Shown here piece after piece: positions 4,692 to 32,635 of a stretch of 64,000 nt of DNA. How positions within the stretch are numbered: position 1 is the stretch's first letter; every line of letters starts with the position of its first letter. Origin of the DNA: Octopus vulgaris (taxonomy: Eukaryota); assembly GCA_951406725.2 (NCBI GenBank), contig OX597823.1, positions 2,542,001 to 2,606,000 of the forward strand, read 5' to 3'. The notes beneath the pieces are model-generated. The model made no database searches, had not been told where the DNA came from, and was given only the letters and a program-made list of their open reading frames with translations. Position numbers and translations under genes: made by a program.

Positions 4692-5142
4692 AGCACGGTG
4701 TATACATTTCATTTATATAATAGTAATGGAAGCACTTTAGTGTAGAAAGTAATCCGTGCTCCGTGTGGCAGAACTGATCCTAATAAAGCGGTAATTACGA
4801 AAGATCTGTATTTCTAGGAACAATGGAGGCAGTTCTGAGAAACTGGCTCCGAAATATCGTTTGCCGTGTGTTGGGAGAAACTGTTGGAAAGTTTCGACTC
4901 ACTCGCATAGGAAATAATTTATGTGAGAGAAGCGCAACTATTTGTATAGACATAAAAATCAATAATAATTTATAAGCTAGGCAAAGAATGCCTACAGAAA
5001 TAAACACACATGGGGAGCGCCCTGTATCGAGCCTCTTTATGTTGAAGCATCTGCAGACGTATGACAAGTGGTGAAACATCATTTCACTATGGCAATATGA
5101 AATGGAAATATTTATCGACCTCCTACACACACACAGAAGTAA

Positions 5143-7322
5143 GACTCATGCTCTCAGGAACGACTCATTGCAAACAAACACAGGTGGAGTCACCTGCTCT
5201 ACCTCACCAATGCACTAGTCATGGAAAAAGTTGTACTCAGACCAACTAGGGAGAATAACATTTTGGATCTCTGCTTCACAAACAATATAGACATCATTCA
5301 TGATGTGAAAGTAACGCCGACATTAGTCTCGGATCACAACATAATAGAGCTTTCTATGTTTGGGCCGAAAGTAGCCAGAGGCATACAGCCAAAAGGAAGC
5401 ACCCGAAATCTCTCCAATCGGAACTTCCACAAAGTAGACTGGAAACCGATCCAAAAAGAGATCCGCAGACAGGACTGTCCGAAATATCTCTCCACACCAG
5501 ACATTGGCATGAAACTAGAATATTTCATGTCTGTTATGCAAGCCATATGCCAGAAATATGTTCCAGAGCACAAGGCCACAACAAATTGGAACAAGATTCC
5601 AAAGGAGAGGAAGATTCTCATGATATGACGGACGAAGGTTGCAAATCGCCTCAACCAACATGCCAAAAGTAGTGAAAGGTCCCGCCTAAAAACAACACTG
5701 ATGTAGATTGGATAAAGATTGCAACAATTTTATGAGAGGGAGAGAGTAGACAAAGAAGCCTGGGTTAGTAAAAACATTAGTAAAAACAGAGCTTTCTTGC
5801 AAATGGCAGACTGCCAAGCAAGCTGAAGGAGGGAATAATATGCCCAATCAATAAAGGAAGCAGAGCAGATGCCAAAACCATAGGCATATCTCTCTGACTT
5901 CACACATCAGCAAAGTCAAGGAACAGATCGTCAGAGGGAAACCAATTGCATACCTTGAAGAAAATGATTTGTTGAGTGATACCCAGCATGACTTTCGAAC
6001 AGGTAGGAGCTGCCTGACCCAGCTCTTACAACATTATGACTTGGTGTTGAGGCAGTTACTCAACAACTCAAATGTGGACGTAACATACCTTGATGTCGCA
6101 AAAGCTGTTGATTAGGGTATGATATGCAACAAACTGCGATTTCTCGGCGTAGCAGGAAAACTTGTTGTGTGGTTACATGACTTTCTGAAAGATAGAAGTC
6201 AGGAAGTAGTGGCCAATAGCGCCTCCTCAACGAAAACACAAATAGTGAGCGGTGTTCCACAGGGCACTGTCTTGGCACCGCTGCTTTTCATAGTGGCCCT
6301 CTTAGATATGCCCTCAACTGCCCGGATAGCTACCCTTGCAAGGTACGCAGACGATACGAATGTCTCGTAGAAAATACAGAAGCCCAGCAATGTTGCACAC
6401 CTGCAGCAGGAGATGACCTCAATTTACAGATGGGCTGAGGATAATAATATGCAGTTAAATGCTGAAAAATTCCAAGCCCTGCGCCACCAGCATCCAAAAC
6501 TGAATATGAAACTTACAGGGTACACTGGTCCACAGGGAATTTTAATCCCAGAGCCTAAGTCAATGAAGGACCTGGGTATCGACATGCGTGATGATACCGC
6601 TTTTCAAGTGCACATTACCAGGATGGTGACAAAGTGCAGACGACAAACTCGATGGATCCTGAGAATATTCAGAACGAGCGAGAAGGAAACCACGATGGTC
6701 CTCTGGAGGACATTCTTCTCCAGCTGCATGGATTCCTGCTTCCAGCTATGGTCACCCAACAGTGTAAAATTAACAGCGGACCTTGAAGCAATCCAGCGAA
6801 GCTTCACAAAGAAGATCGTCTCATTGCAACAGCTCAGCTAATTGGAAAGGCTGCAACAGCTAAGACTCTACTCCCTGAAGCTAAGGCGGGAGAGGTATGC
6901 AGTAATATATACATCTGGAAGATCCTGGAAGGAATTGTGCCAAATTTTGACATTGGAAGCTACATCAATGCAAGGAACGGGTCGACACCGCACACTGCCA
7001 AATATCCCAGCAATGCCATCGAGCTTCAGGACCAGTTACTGCAACAACCTGTGTTTCGGGGGCCCACATCTTGTTTAATATTCTCCCAAAGAACCTGAGG
7101 AATCTGCACAAAGTAGATGTAGGCGTTTTTCAATCAAAGCTGGACGTCTTCCTGTCGAGAGTCCCAAATGAACGTACCTCAAGGCAAGAGGTGCAAATAA
7201 GGGTAGCTATATCAAACTCCATTCTAAACCAAGTGGCATATATTAGAGGAGGATCTCAGTAATCAGTGTAGCAAAACAGCGGTGCTCCAACATGGCCACA
7301 GCAATGAGCTGAAATTATAAAA
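5143..7322 (+). pseudogene. Decayed 5'-truncated LINE D (sister of family B), EN-RT relic
   Basis: LDLCFTNN, SDH, VPQGTVL and YADD are split by stops and frameshifts. Has a ~375-bp internal deletion near 5785 relative to copy 2. Confidence 0.92.
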
Positions 7323-8832: not shown

Positions 8833-9060
8833 ATCGTTGATTCTGTAATTCTATCGTAATAATCTATCGTTAATATATATATATATATATATCGTTAATT
8901 CTATCGTTAATTCTGTAATTCTATCGTAATAATCTATCGCTAATATACATATATATCGTAAATTCTATCGTTGATTCTGTAATTCTATCGTAGTAATCTA
9001 TCGTTAATATATATATATATATCGTTAATTCTCTCGTTAATTCTGTTTACATTCTGTTAA
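8468..9060 (+). repeat. Minisatellite in the LINE B 5' UTR
   Basis: About 8-9 units of TCTATCGTTAATTCTGTAATTCTATCGTAATAATCTATCGTTAAT(AT)n. Followed by 27-bp CT-rich repeats at ~9140-9215. Confidence 0.9.
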
Positions 9061-9423
9061 TTCCTTCTCTCTCTGTCTCTTCAGTTCTCTCCCTCACGCC
9101 TCTCCTTGTCTCTTCATTACTCTCTTCTTTCTTACTCTCCTCTTTCAGCTCTCAATCTCTCCTCTCTTCTTTCAGCTCTCAATCTCTCCTCTCTTCTTTC
9201 AGCTCTCAATCTCTCTTTAAGTACAGAGACGCTTTCTCTCTCTCCCTTCAGCTCTCAGTCTCTCCTCTTCCTCTTCTCTCTTACTCTCTTCTTTCGGCTC
9301 CCAATCTCTCCTTAAGTACATAGACGCTCTCTTTCTCTATTTCTTCCCTACACCCTATTGCACTATTAGATCAATATAAATTAATATAATCAGATAGATA
9401 GATAGATAGATAAAATATCAAGA

Positions 9424-10314
9424 ATGTCCAGGACTTGGAAAAGTGACGAACTGGCTTTGTTCCTGAGAGGATGGCAATGCACTGACGGAGAAAATCCAAA
9501 TAACATAATCACGGCTGCGCTGAAGAGCAGCGGATACAAAAGGACGTCAGCCCAAATAGAGCGAAAGAAGCAAGAATTTATACGCTCCTACGCACTTGTC
9601 AGATCGCACATTAACACGCTGGATGCCATCTTCGACAGCGAAAAACGCGAACAAAGTAAAGATGGCAAGGATGGAGACGCGGGCGCTGATGAAAAAGGTC
9701 ACCCCCACCTGGTAGACGCCCAGGAAGAAAACTCCAGTGAGAAACCTGCCCGGGAGGTAAACCCAAGTGCGGGTGCTCCTACCGGCACCAAAAGCCATGG
9801 ACATGGAGATGAAAGAACCAAAAAAGGAGGAAAAACTAAAACTAAAAATCAGGCAAAACCAAAAAACGAAACAGCCAAGGATAGAAGCAAACCTAACTAT
9901 CCGTATGCCAAAAAGGATGGAAACAAGCAGCGCACACGGGTATGTAGGTTCTACCTGAGAGGTGCCTGCCGGCATGGAGAGGATGGTGCAGGCTGCCGTT
10001 TTGCACATCCGGGACCCTGCCGCAGAAACCAACCACCGAAAGGAAAAGGGATGGACCACGCACCACCTGCCCCAAAACGGAGGTACGCAGATGTGGTGCG
10101 GGCCACAGACCGCCAACGTGTTGTTGAAAGGGCAGCTGCTGAACAAGAATCTTTTTTGTGCATGGCACAAAAGATTGTACAGCAGCTAACCTGGCTCCAT
10201 CAAACTCAAGCTCACAGATGGAACTACCCACAGTTCACAAGACCGCCACAGCAGATGGACCCAGGGTGGACACCACCGGCAACACCATACACCTCACCTC
10301 GATGCTCCTACTGA
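9424..10314 (+). CDS. LINE B ORF1 (296 aa): Myb/SANT-like N-terminus, basic linker, CCCH finger
   Basis: RTWKSDELALFLRGW...GYKRTSAQIERK; VCRFYLRGACRHGEDGAGCRFAH. ATG start; overlaps ORF2. Confidence 0.85.
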   Translation: MSRTWKSDELALFLRGWQCTDGENPNNIITAALKSSGYKRTSAQIERKKQEFIRSYALVRSHINTLDAIFDSEKREQSKDGKDGDAGADEKGHPHLVDAQEENSSEKPAREVNPSAGAPTGTKSHGHGDERTKKGGKTKTKNQAKPKNETAKDRSKPNYPYAKKDGNKQRTRVCRFYLRGACRHGEDGAGCRFAHPGPCRRNQPPKGKGMDHAPPAPKRRYADVVRATDRQRVVERAAAEQESFLCMAQKIVQQLTWLHQTQAHRWNYPQFTRPPQQMDPGWTPPATPYTSPRCSY

Positions 10315-13262
10315 ACATCAGAGGACTACTAACACACAGTAACAGGACAAAAGTCCCGTTCTTGAGAGACTTTGTTGCATGCAATCAAGCCTTATGCATA
10401 GCACTTACGGAAACACACCTGAAACCGGACATAGCCGATGCGGAATTACACATACCACAGTATGTTGTACTACGGACCGACAGAAAAGAAAGGAGTCATG
10501 GAGGAGTTGCTATGTACATCCGTGAGGACCTCACACCCCAGGTCCTTTTGTCATACTCAAACTCGGTGTGTGACACACTAATTGTACATGTAAGGCAACT
10601 TGGTGTAGTTGTGTGTGCTACATATCGCCCTCCAGATGCCCCAGGCCATGTAGGCAAGTTTGAGGACTGCCTTATAAAAATAGAAGAAGTTCTAGTCACA
10701 CTAGAACAGCACATAAGTGTACTTCTCATGGGAGACTTCAACCTACCCAATGTCAGATGGCCCGAGGGCTTTTCTCTCCCAGGAATGACACGATGTGAAC
10801 GGGGACAGGCGAGGTCCCTCCTGAACCTCATCAACACCCTGTACATGGAGCAAGTAATACTCCAACCAACCAGGGCAAGTAACACACTGGATCTCTGCTT
10901 CACAAATAATATGGATCTCATCCATAATGTGAAAGTGACACCGACACTACTCTCGGATCACAATATGGTAGAGCTGACCATGTACGGGCCAAAGGAAAGC
11001 ATGGACATGCAGCCTACAAGAAACTCTCAGAATCTTTCCAGCTTGAACTTCAATAAGGCAAACTGGAAACAAATTGAGAAAGAGATCCTCAAACAAAACT
11101 GGCCTGAATGTCTCTCCTCGCCGGACATCGACATGAAACTTCAACAATTCATGTCTGTAATGCAAGCCATATGCTACAAGTGTGTCCCAGAGAGAAAGGC
11201 CACTGTACACAAGAACAAAATCCCCAGAGAGAGGAAAATTTTAATGAGACGGCGTACAAAAATTTCAAATCGCCTAAACAAACAAATTGAAAGCAGTGAA
11301 AAGTCCCGCCTGAAAATAAAACTATTGGAAATTGAGAAATGTCTGCAACTCTCCCATGAAAAGGAAAGAGCAGACAAAGAAGCCTGGGCTATAGACAACA
11401 TAAAAACAAACCCCAGAGCTTTCTACAGGTATGCCAAAGAAACAGCTACGGTGCACTGTAGGATAGGGCCACTCCTTGAAAAGGATGGCACACTCACAGG
11501 AAAACCAATGAGGGTAAGTGAAATACTGAATGAGCAATTCAAGAGTGTTTTCACTCCACCCCTTGGGCATTTCCAAATCAGCAATCCAACTGACTTCTTT
11601 ACCACTGCAGGTATAAAATCAGAGGCGGCGACGATAAATTACATCGATATAAAGGAAGACGATGTAATAAAGGCTATAGATGAAATGAAAACAGACTCAG
11701 CTATTGGCCCCGATGGATTCCCGGCAATCCAACTAAAAGTATGTAAGAGAGTCCTAGCAAGCCCACTGCAGTTCCTCTTTCAGAGCTTCCTTGCAGCTGG
11801 CAAACTTCCAAGAAAACTGAAGGAAGGTAAAATATGCCCTATTCATAAAGGAGGTAGCAGAGCGGAGGCCAAGAACTACAGACCTATCTCTCTCACCTCA
11901 CACATCAGCAAGGTCATGGAACGAATAGTCAGAAGGAAACTAATCACCTTCCTTGAAGAAAATGACTTGCTGCCTGACACCCAACATGGTTTCCGACCAG
12001 GAAGAAGCTGCTTAACTCAGCTCCTACAACACTATGACTGGGTGCTGAAACAACTGCTCAACCACTCAAATGTGGAAGTCATATATCTCGACTTTGCAAA
12101 GGCCTTTGATAATTTCGATCATGGAATGATATGTCACAAACTGCGTGATCTTGGCATAGTTGGAAAATTGGGAGAATGGCTTCATGACTTTCTGAAGAAT
12201 AGAAGTCAGGTGGTAACAGCCAATGGGGCCACTTCCATTAACACGCAAATAATGAGCGGTGTTCCGCAGGGCACTGTTTTGGGACCACTACTGTTCATAA
12301 TGGCCCTCACAGACATGCCCTCAGCCACGCAGAGAGCTACGATCACAAGTTATGCAGATGATACAAAAGTTTCACAGGCAATACAGAACCCTGAGGACAC
12401 TAAGCACCTGCAATGTGAGCTGGACGGAATATACAAGTGGGCTGAAAAGAATAGCATGCAGTTCAATGCTGAAAAGTTTCAAGCTTTATACTATCAGCAT
12501 GCAAAACTGAATGCAATACCCAATGAATACACTGGACCCGGAGGGATTGCAATCCCAGAGGCACAATCAGTGCGTGACCTGGGTATTCACATGAGTGATG
12601 ACGCGACCTTTCATGTACATGTTGCTAAACTGGCAATGAAATGTAGACGGCTGGCTGGATGGATTCTTAGAACCTTCAGAACAAGAGAACAAGAAACCAT
12701 GATGGTCCTCTGGAAGACACTTGTCCTAAGCCACTTTGACTATTGCTCTCAGCTATGGTCACCATCCAGTGTCAAGATGATCACAGAACTTGAGGCGATC
12801 AAACGAAGCTACACGAAGAAGATAGCCTCTGTGCAGCATATGAGCTACAGGGAAAGACTCAAGAGATTAAAGCTCTATTCGCTGGAGCGTAGGCGAGAAA
12901 GATATGCCACAATATATATCTGGAAGATCCTGGAAGGACTTGTCCCAAACTTTGGCATCGAGAGTCACACAAATGCCAGAACCGGGCGCCATTGCGTAGT
13001 ACCAAGGACTCCAAATTTGCCATCAAGATGTAGGACAAGATATTGTGATAGCCTGGGCTTCAGAGGCCCACAGCTCTTCAATATCCTCCCAAAGAACCTC
13101 AGGGACCTGCATGGTGTAGATGCGGATGTCTTTAAAGTAGGACTGGACCTCTTCCTGTCAGGTGTCCCGGATGAACCAACTTCACGGCAGGAGGTGCAGA
13201 TGAGGGCAGCTGCATCGAACTCTCTCATGCATCAGATGGCGTTTGCTAAAAAGCATCCGTGA
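10158..13262 (+). CDS. LINE B ORF2: APE endonuclease plus reverse transcriptase, uninterrupted
   Basis: NIRGL, LTETHL, GDFN, LDL and SDH (endonuclease); YRPISL, QHGF, GVPQG and YADD (RT). The true start is uncertain: the track starts at GTG, and the frame opens at 10143. Confidence 0.96.
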   Translation: MHGTKDCTAANLAPSNSSSQMELPTVHKTATADGPRVDTTGNTIHLTSMLLLNIRGLLTHSNRTKVPFLRDFVACNQALCIALTETHLKPDIADAELHIPQYVVLRTDRKERSHGGVAMYIREDLTPQVLLSYSNSVCDTLIVHVRQLGVVVCATYRPPDAPGHVGKFEDCLIKIEEVLVTLEQHISVLLMGDFNLPNVRWPEGFSLPGMTRCERGQARSLLNLINTLYMEQVILQPTRASNTLDLCFTNNMDLIHNVKVTPTLLSDHNMVELTMYGPKESMDMQPTRNSQNLSSLNFNKANWKQIEKEILKQNWPECLSSPDIDMKLQQFMSVMQAICYKCVPERKATVHKNKIPRERKILMRRRTKISNRLNKQIESSEKSRLKIKLLEIEKCLQLSHEKERADKEAWAIDNIKTNPRAFYRYAKETATVHCRIGPLLEKDGTLTGKPMRVSEILNEQFKSVFTPPLGHFQISNPTDFFTTAGIKSEAATINYIDIKEDDVIKAIDEMKTDSAIGPDGFPAIQLKVCKRVLASPLQFLFQSFLAAGKLPRKLKEGKICPIHKGGSRAEAKNYRPISLTSHISKVMERIVRRKLITFLEENDLLPDTQHGFRPGRSCLTQLLQHYDWVLKQLLNHSNVEVIYLDFAKAFDNFDHGMICHKLRDLGIVGKLGEWLHDFLKNRSQVVTANGATSINTQIMSGVPQGTVLGPLLFIMALTDMPSATQRATITSYADDTKVSQAIQNPEDTKHLQCELDGIYKWAEKNSMQFNAEKFQALYYQHAKLNAIPNEYTGPGGIAIPEAQSVRDLGIHMSDDATFHVHVAKLAMKCRRLAGWILRTFRTREQETMMVLWKTLVLSHFDYCSQLWSPSSVKMITELEAIKRSYTKKIASVQHMSYRERLKRLKLYSLERRRERYATIYIWKILEGLVPNFGIESHTNARTGRHCVVPRTPNLPSRCRTRYCDSLGFRGPQLFNILPKNLRDLHGVDADVFKVGLDLFLSGVPDEPTSRQEVQMRAAASNSLMHQMAFAKKHP

Positions 13263-13370
13263 GGTAAAATCGTGTAGCAAACAATATGGCGGTGCCCCAG
13301 CATGGCCACAGCTCATTAGCTGAAACTGGAAGAATCAAAATCAAATCATATATATATATATATTTATATA

Positions 13371-13423
<53 letters not shown>

Positions 13424-14697: not shown

Positions 14698-32635
<17,938 letters not shown>

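Follow-up and report, generated by a model that had tools for sequence, protein, structure and literature searches.

TRE5-A and TRE3-A are retrotransposons of the L1 group. In Dictyostelium, these APE-type non-LTR elements are stated to need a -1 frameshift for ORF2 (PMC5911963). They differ from the element described here in their amoebozoan host, their targeting of tRNA genes and their ORF1, and the accessible text of that source gives neither a slip site nor a test. Recoding of ORF2 has also been proposed, from sequence alone, for groups 1-3 of the Paramecium non-LTR elements (PMC5405496). These differ in forming a separate clade and in the events proposed (a +1 shift, reinitiation or read-through). 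Translation of ORF2 from a single LINE RNA has been described as unclear (PMC3708506), and the usual model is reinitiation, as for SART1 and L1 (PMC3708506, PMC5972666).

Family B, a LINE of Octopus vulgaris, has features in common with Gag-Pol -1 frameshift systems, including a -1 overlap with an in-phase X XXY YYZ heptamer at its start, and a structural gene placed before the polymerase. The same heptamer types occur among its relatives. Unlike Gag-Pol systems, family B is a non-LTR element without a protease, its heptamer ends in G, it carries in-frame AUGs, and no 3' stem-loop or pseudoknot was detected. It likely works like the Gag-Pol -1 frameshift, yet it fails the canonical test of a 3' stimulator.

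The window (the whole stretch of DNA analysed, 64,000 nucleotides of a 2.8 Gb genome) contains an intact, full-length copy of family B at positions 9053-13348, on the forward strand. The family is young, as 40 of 40 scored genome matches have 95-100% identity, and the full ORF2 frame of 1,039 codons is present in 9 of 30 fetched copies. A degenerate pattern for the junction of the two reading frames has 999 exact matches in the genome, and its reversed control has none. The pyrimidine-rich 5' UTR (9053-9423) has an approximate start, placed where 8 of 29 other copies cease aligning (9053-9061); the rest of the 29 are mostly 5'-truncated. The 3' tail (13287-13348, forward strand) consists of two hairpins, GAAAC, short tandem repeats and (TA)n. 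Two adjacent 3' hairpins ahead of the terminal repeats are found in most members of the clade (L112, L113, L118, L125, L245, L251, L261), with differing stem sequences, and these are probably the element recognised by the reverse transcriptase. Most copies are flanked by (TA)n (13349-13420 in the window; also L003-L030 and L245-L261), which suggests insertion into TA microsatellites. Also present in the window is a 5'-truncated fragment of a second family, D, in four places (5122-7314, 17332-19864, 24271-26502 and 31332-32630). Within 270 kb there are at least nine occurrences that are 96-100% identical, which points to a local array, tandem or segmental.

Elements of the CR1 clade typically end in a 3' stem-loop and short tandem repeats, and their copies are 5'-truncated. 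The 3' end of family B has hairpins and short tandem repeats, and many copies are 5'-truncated. Its ORF2 encodes both an APE endonuclease and a reverse transcriptase, as a CR1-clade LINE requires, with CR1-type motifs recognised by eye (PMC4120745, PMC13343379, PMC3708506). When the reverse transcriptase motifs were compared, by eye only, with the CR1, Nimb, Rex1 and Ingi entries of the RTclass1 set (available as a supplement of PMC3708506), CR1 fitted best. Family B is thus likely a member of the CR1 clade. The tree of relatives used below was built from APE domains and holds no named references.

ORF1 (9424-10314, forward strand; 296 aa, with its stop codon at 10312-10314) has a Myb/SANT-like N terminus, a CCCH zinc finger and a C-terminal amphipathic helix. 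The Pfam matches are weak and below cut-off (zf-CCCH, E 0.004; Myb_DNA-bind_4, E 0.075). This combination matches none of the described CR1 types I-IV, listed as RRM/CCHC, L1-type, PHD and esterase in the accessible survey text, and would fall in the unclassified type V of PMC4120745; ORF1 type is variable and does not define the clade. A search for ORF1 homologues returned three matches, all named Octopus proteins, and a protein atlas search gave no usable match. Two annotated Octopus gene models (P0001 and P0002) contain pieces of the family B ORF1; these apparently chimeric models are likely mis-joined exons. The ORF2 frame (10143-13262, forward strand; 1,039 codons) encodes APE at about 10305-10973 and the reverse transcriptase at about 11841-12587, with Pfam matches to RVT_1 (E 9e-30) and Exo_endo_phos_2 (E 3e-11).

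The two frames overlap by 172 nt, with ORF2 in the -1 frame. The last ORF2-frame stop (TGA, 10140-10142) is followed after 9 nt by the heptamer U UUU UUG (10152-10158), which lies in phase with ORF1 codons TCT TTT TTG (S-F-L) and is the predicted -1 shift site; both features are on the forward strand and stand exactly where the preliminary description had placed them. Two canonical features of a -1 site are therefore found in family B, the overlap open from the shift site and the in-phase X XXY YYZ heptamer, with Z = G. The open -1 frame is uninformative for family B taken alone, since 41% of synonymous recodings also stay open. Heptamers that end in G are usually weak slip sites, and the U UUU UUG form occurs in just 2 of 37 representatives with a -1 overlap. 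In a set of 57 copies (59 fetched, 56 of which span the junction, plus the window copy), the TGA is retained in 55 and is TAA in one. The TCT-U6-G context is exact in 40 of the 57; one U is lost in 15, one is gained in one, and the preceding C is altered in one.

The U run (10152-10157) is often one U short, both among the 57 aligned copies and in 13 of the first 100 copies listed. Loss of one U breaks ORF1. Two A6 runs were used for comparison, one of which has a similar loss rate (7/42) and the other not (1/42). The shortening may reflect either a mutation hotspot or assembly error.

We consider that family B probably uses -1 ribosomal frameshifting at U UUU UUG to produce an ORF1-ORF2 fusion, and assign this reading a probability of roughly 0.7. 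Our confidence is higher for the clade than for family B itself. Most ribosomes would finish ORF1 at 10312, yielding the RNA-binding protein of 296 aa, C-terminal helix included. A minority would slip back one base at the heptamer and read on V-H-G-T-K. They would then pass through a Ser/Thr-rich stretch of the -1 frame without stops (10159-10301, forward strand), a predicted linker between the ORF1 domains and the endonuclease. The predicted fusion is about 1,279 aa (245 + 1,034) and would comprise SANT, CCCH, linker, endonuclease and reverse transcriptase. The putative C-terminal helix of ORF1 (10153-10200, forward strand; a pattern found by eye in 18 of 18 relatives inspected) begins with Phe-Leu, so a shift at its first turn would leave SANT and CCCH in the fusion and remove the helix. 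Rare shifting would set a low ratio of enzyme to ORF1 protein, as in Gag-Pol systems.

Distant relatives provide the main support for this reading. An alignment of the endonuclease retrieved the best 80 of 206 metagenome loci and six genome-contig loci. Together with four families of the octopus genome these gave 90 sequences, which form 60 clusters at 70% APE identity. Fifteen clusters lack a callable ORF1. Among the 45 others, the -1 layout is found in 37, and the remaining eight have ORF2 in the +1 frame (six) or in the same frame (two). For the 37 clusters with a -1 overlap, we generated a null by recoding each ORF1 synonymously according to its codon usage. The overlap contains an in-phase X XXY YYZ heptamer in 28, compared with 9.0 expected (P 3e-14), and the overlaps exceed the null in length (combined P 1e-17), both P values being overstated because they assume independence and the clusters are kin. 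If the frame is required to stay open, 11.1 heptamers are expected. The triplets GGA, GGU, GUU and UCC are also allowed as XXX in slip heptamers. With a relaxed set that admits them, and of which G GAU UUU was confirmed as a member, the counts are 34 observed and 14.5 expected; three of the 37 have no heptamer of any kind.

The heptamers are concentrated where the open -1 frame begins, at a median of 13.5 nt past the stop in overlaps with a median length of 172 nt. Within the first 60 nt of the overlaps, 27 of 704 positions hold in-phase heptamers, compared with 51 of 10,424 upstream, where stops in the -1 frame occur at 0.097 per codon. In 23 of the 37, family A1 included, the ORF2 frame lacks an AUG upstream of about codon 5 of the endonuclease, the start of which was estimated from a profile. 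The heptamer is conserved beyond what the peptide requires and occurs more often than chance would give. Because unlike peptides lie over the same type of signal, the pattern points to ribosome slippage rather than protein conservation alone.

Other layouts were observed among the relatives. In a related branch, two loci (L146:560-600 and L152:1130-1165) have ORF2 in the +1 frame and no AUG; ORF1 of L152 terminates CCC UAG, resembling a +1 shift at a stop codon. Two loci (L129:1495-1520 and L179:2970-2995) have G GGG GAA where others have a canonical heptamer, possibly a non-canonical shift site. An esterase-type locus (L165) has U UUA AAC directly before a stop. Another locus (L173:482-600) encodes a 2A-like peptide, GDIEPNPGP, ahead of the endonuclease; such a peptide is known in CR1-group LINEs (PMC3708506). 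CR1-type LINEs were also found on contigs filed in bacterial genome bins (L189-L193), which are likely eukaryotic contamination. No relatives were found among 14 candidates on viral contigs.

The octopus families belong to a 20-row clade in the APE tree (support 99/96). This clade represents about 8-9 independent lineages, with B and D sharing 64% of synonymous positions. Its 17 callable junctions comprise 14 x-Phe-Leu, two G GAU UUU and one A AAA AAC. Thirteen of the 14 x-Phe-Leu junctions are coded U UUU UUR and one G UUU UUA, whereas none of the 51 Phe-Leu pairs in the ORF2s of the same clade is coded U UUU UUR. In the octopus genome, the heptamer of family A1 (U UUU UUA, 271-277 on the reverse strand of the window, a comparison site) lies 12 nt past its stop, and the first AUG in the ORF2 frame of this family comes deep within the endonuclease. 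Family A2 has U UUU UUA just 3 nt past its stop, and family D has U UUU UUA or UUG 9 nt past its stop. We obtained no tblastn match between the ORF1s of families A and B, which are barely alignable, as had been observed previously. Every B-lineage subfamily sampled has the heptamer; one pattern search selected for it, and the other copy searches did not.

The preliminary description proposed that the S-F-L peptide shared by these ORF1s may reflect an RNA signal. The restriction of its codons to U UUU UUR across divergent families supports this, but Phe-Leu also opens the conserved helix, and the peptide is probably retained for both reasons. Were the helix start the whole explanation, ORF2 could be translated by AUG-independent reinitiation after the ORF1 stop across the clade, as in L1. 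L1 tolerates replacement of the ORF2 AUG by sense codons (PMC1965478), and in 7 of 15 placeable clade members the ORF1 stop lies 2-11 nt before the first APE Asn. This proximity may be a by-product of Leu-Asn codons. Reinitiation of this kind leaves unexplained the codon restriction (13/14 vs. 0/51), the different heptamers under different peptides and the 50-118 stop-free codons upstream, and we regard it as very unlikely.

Family B itself has two ORF2-frame AUGs ahead of the endonuclease, and no others. The first (10218-10220, forward strand) and the second (10302-10304, forward strand, at the first endonuclease strand) are both present in 57 of 57 close copies. The second lies 10 nt upstream of the ORF1 stop. 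The caution raised earlier, that in-frame AUGs make reinitiation possible, holds for the B lineage, in which 10 of 12 representatives have an in-frame AUG 10-94 nt upstream of the ORF1 stop; the remaining two representatives are decayed. The main way of making family B ORF2 could then be termination-reinitiation or internal initiation at 10302 or 10218, with the G-ending heptamer as a weakened, inherited relic or minor route. SART1 is an established case of reinitiation and L1 a proposed one (PMC5972666), and family B resembles both in having a bicistronic LINE RNA and an AUG near the ORF1 stop (PMC5972666, PMC3708506). Unlike them, it has no overlapping UAAUG, its frames overlap by 172 nt in -1, and the AUG is not conserved and is absent in many relatives.

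Several observations make initiation at these AUGs unlikely as the main route. The AUG at 10302 has a weak context, ACCTCGATGC, and aligns with Ile, Val or Thr codons of sister families; in B2, B3, D and E the residue is Ile or Val. Position 10218 is GUG in subfamily B2. The distance from AUG to ORF1 stop is 10 nt in B and 46-94 nt in the sister subfamilies, and A1 has no AUG. The AUGs of the lineage move among three positions that track ORF1 codons (Gly-Trp, Arg-Trp and Arg-Cys), whereas the heptamer is retained in every subfamily sampled and its end merely alternates between UUG and UUA, both Leu. No UGGGA tethering motif occurs within 10220-10314, but SART1 itself does not use this motif (PMC5972666). 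The AUGs may provide family B with a second route to ORF2 in addition to the frameshift.

The U run allows two further explanations at the level of RNA. RNA polymerase slippage on the run could add one U and fuse the frames in the RNA. The run is unstable, with the frequent U5 forms noted above and U7 in 16 of 808 copies. If the enzyme prefers its own RNA, however, fused U7 RNA should be copied, and U7 accounts for only 2%. Slippage by the polymerase does not need the codon phase, and misfits G GGA AAC, G GAU UUU and U UUA AAC in relatives; we consider it highly improbable. Alternatively, splicing could take out the overlap, the U run serving as a polypyrimidine tract, and A1 has U6-AG, which resembles a 3' splice site. 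No AG follows the run in B, D or A2, and splicing requires neither a fixed phase nor an open -1 frame, so its probability is close to negligible. Contigs of four sequencing runs (three guessed to be RNA) that cover the stretch have no GT-AG among 14 joints and no U-run indel at a 10% share; as rare variants are lost in contigs, these results are not evidence in either direction.

The canonical position of a stimulatory structure is 5-9 nt 3' of the heptamer. The preliminary description instead proposed a hairpin in which the U run folds onto a downstream AAAAGA, as a layout shared by families A and B with different inner stems. The hairpin does fold in family B (10152-10161 pairs with 10165-10174; 10 pairs, -8.6 kcal/mol), and the inner stem of family A is indeed different (A1 fold, z -4.3). 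The family B hairpin has z -3.1 in a 25-nt window fitted to it, -1.2 over 40 nt and -0.9 over 61 nt. Its 10 pairs form the inner part of an interrupted, lineage-restricted stem-loop of 21 pairs that contains the heptamer (10134-10187, forward strand). The hairpin is not a signal common to the families: A2, the UUA form of D (where it falls to about -3 kcal/mol) and most relatives have it weakly or not at all; related families keep the heptamer and most of them lack the hairpin. Since part of its stem is the heptamer, the hairpin cannot lie downstream of a ribosome positioned at the slip site, and must presumably be open while the ribosome occupies that site.

Covariation gives the hairpin no support. 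In 18 B-lineage sequences, 98.9% of cells in the 21-pair stem are paired, none of the 21 pairs has changed on both sides, and the score for covariation is the same as the mean after shuffling. There is also no added synonymous constraint in the stem, where B and D are identical at 9 of 16 sites, compared with 112 of 176 in the endonuclease. As synonymous sites in the stem are unremarkable, the 85% local identity of B and D follows the peptide. We therefore rejected the hairpin as a shared stimulator, being weak or absent in relatives, burying the slip site and showing no compensatory change. The earlier proposal is thus partly supported, in that the relatives favour the slip site and not the hairpin.

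Searches for other stimulators were negative. Downstream windows of 34 elements have a mean z of about 0 (family B, +1.2 and +0.5), which indicates no local 3' stem, and a crude scan found no excess of H-type pseudoknots. In family B the slip region pairs with the 3' tail no better than shuffles or foreign tails do. Nor was such pairing seen in B2, B4, E, D, A1 or A2; L125 and perhaps L118 were the only ones to score among the 13 elements scanned. The 3' stimulatory structure of a canonical -1 signal is thus absent from these results. The predicted shift would be inefficient, or would rely on something that these scans miss.

Frameshifting of the -1 type in CR1 LINEs is not reported in the literature searched, older subscription papers lying beyond the search. 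Early descriptions of CR1-like elements from turtle, chicken and Anopheles may have speculated on it. The word "frameshift" is absent from the main text of two CR1 surveys (PMC4120745 and PMC13343379). A broader proposal, which we hold tentatively and rate a little below even odds, is that two-ORF CR1 LINEs across animals may make a Gag-Pol-like fusion via bare heptamers without a local stimulator, whatever the ORF1 type (CCCH, PHD or esterase). In the clade of family B the shift would swap the ORF1 helix for the enzyme, and the CCCH fingers could be a trans-activator.

If frameshifting occurs as predicted, the ORF2 product of these elements would be a fusion protein, and the annotation of CR1 elements would change, as would the constructs of CR1 proteins used in assays or in tools for gene insertion. 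It would also be unusual for a slip site to have no detectable stimulator. The retroviral strategy would then reach a major group of LINEs.
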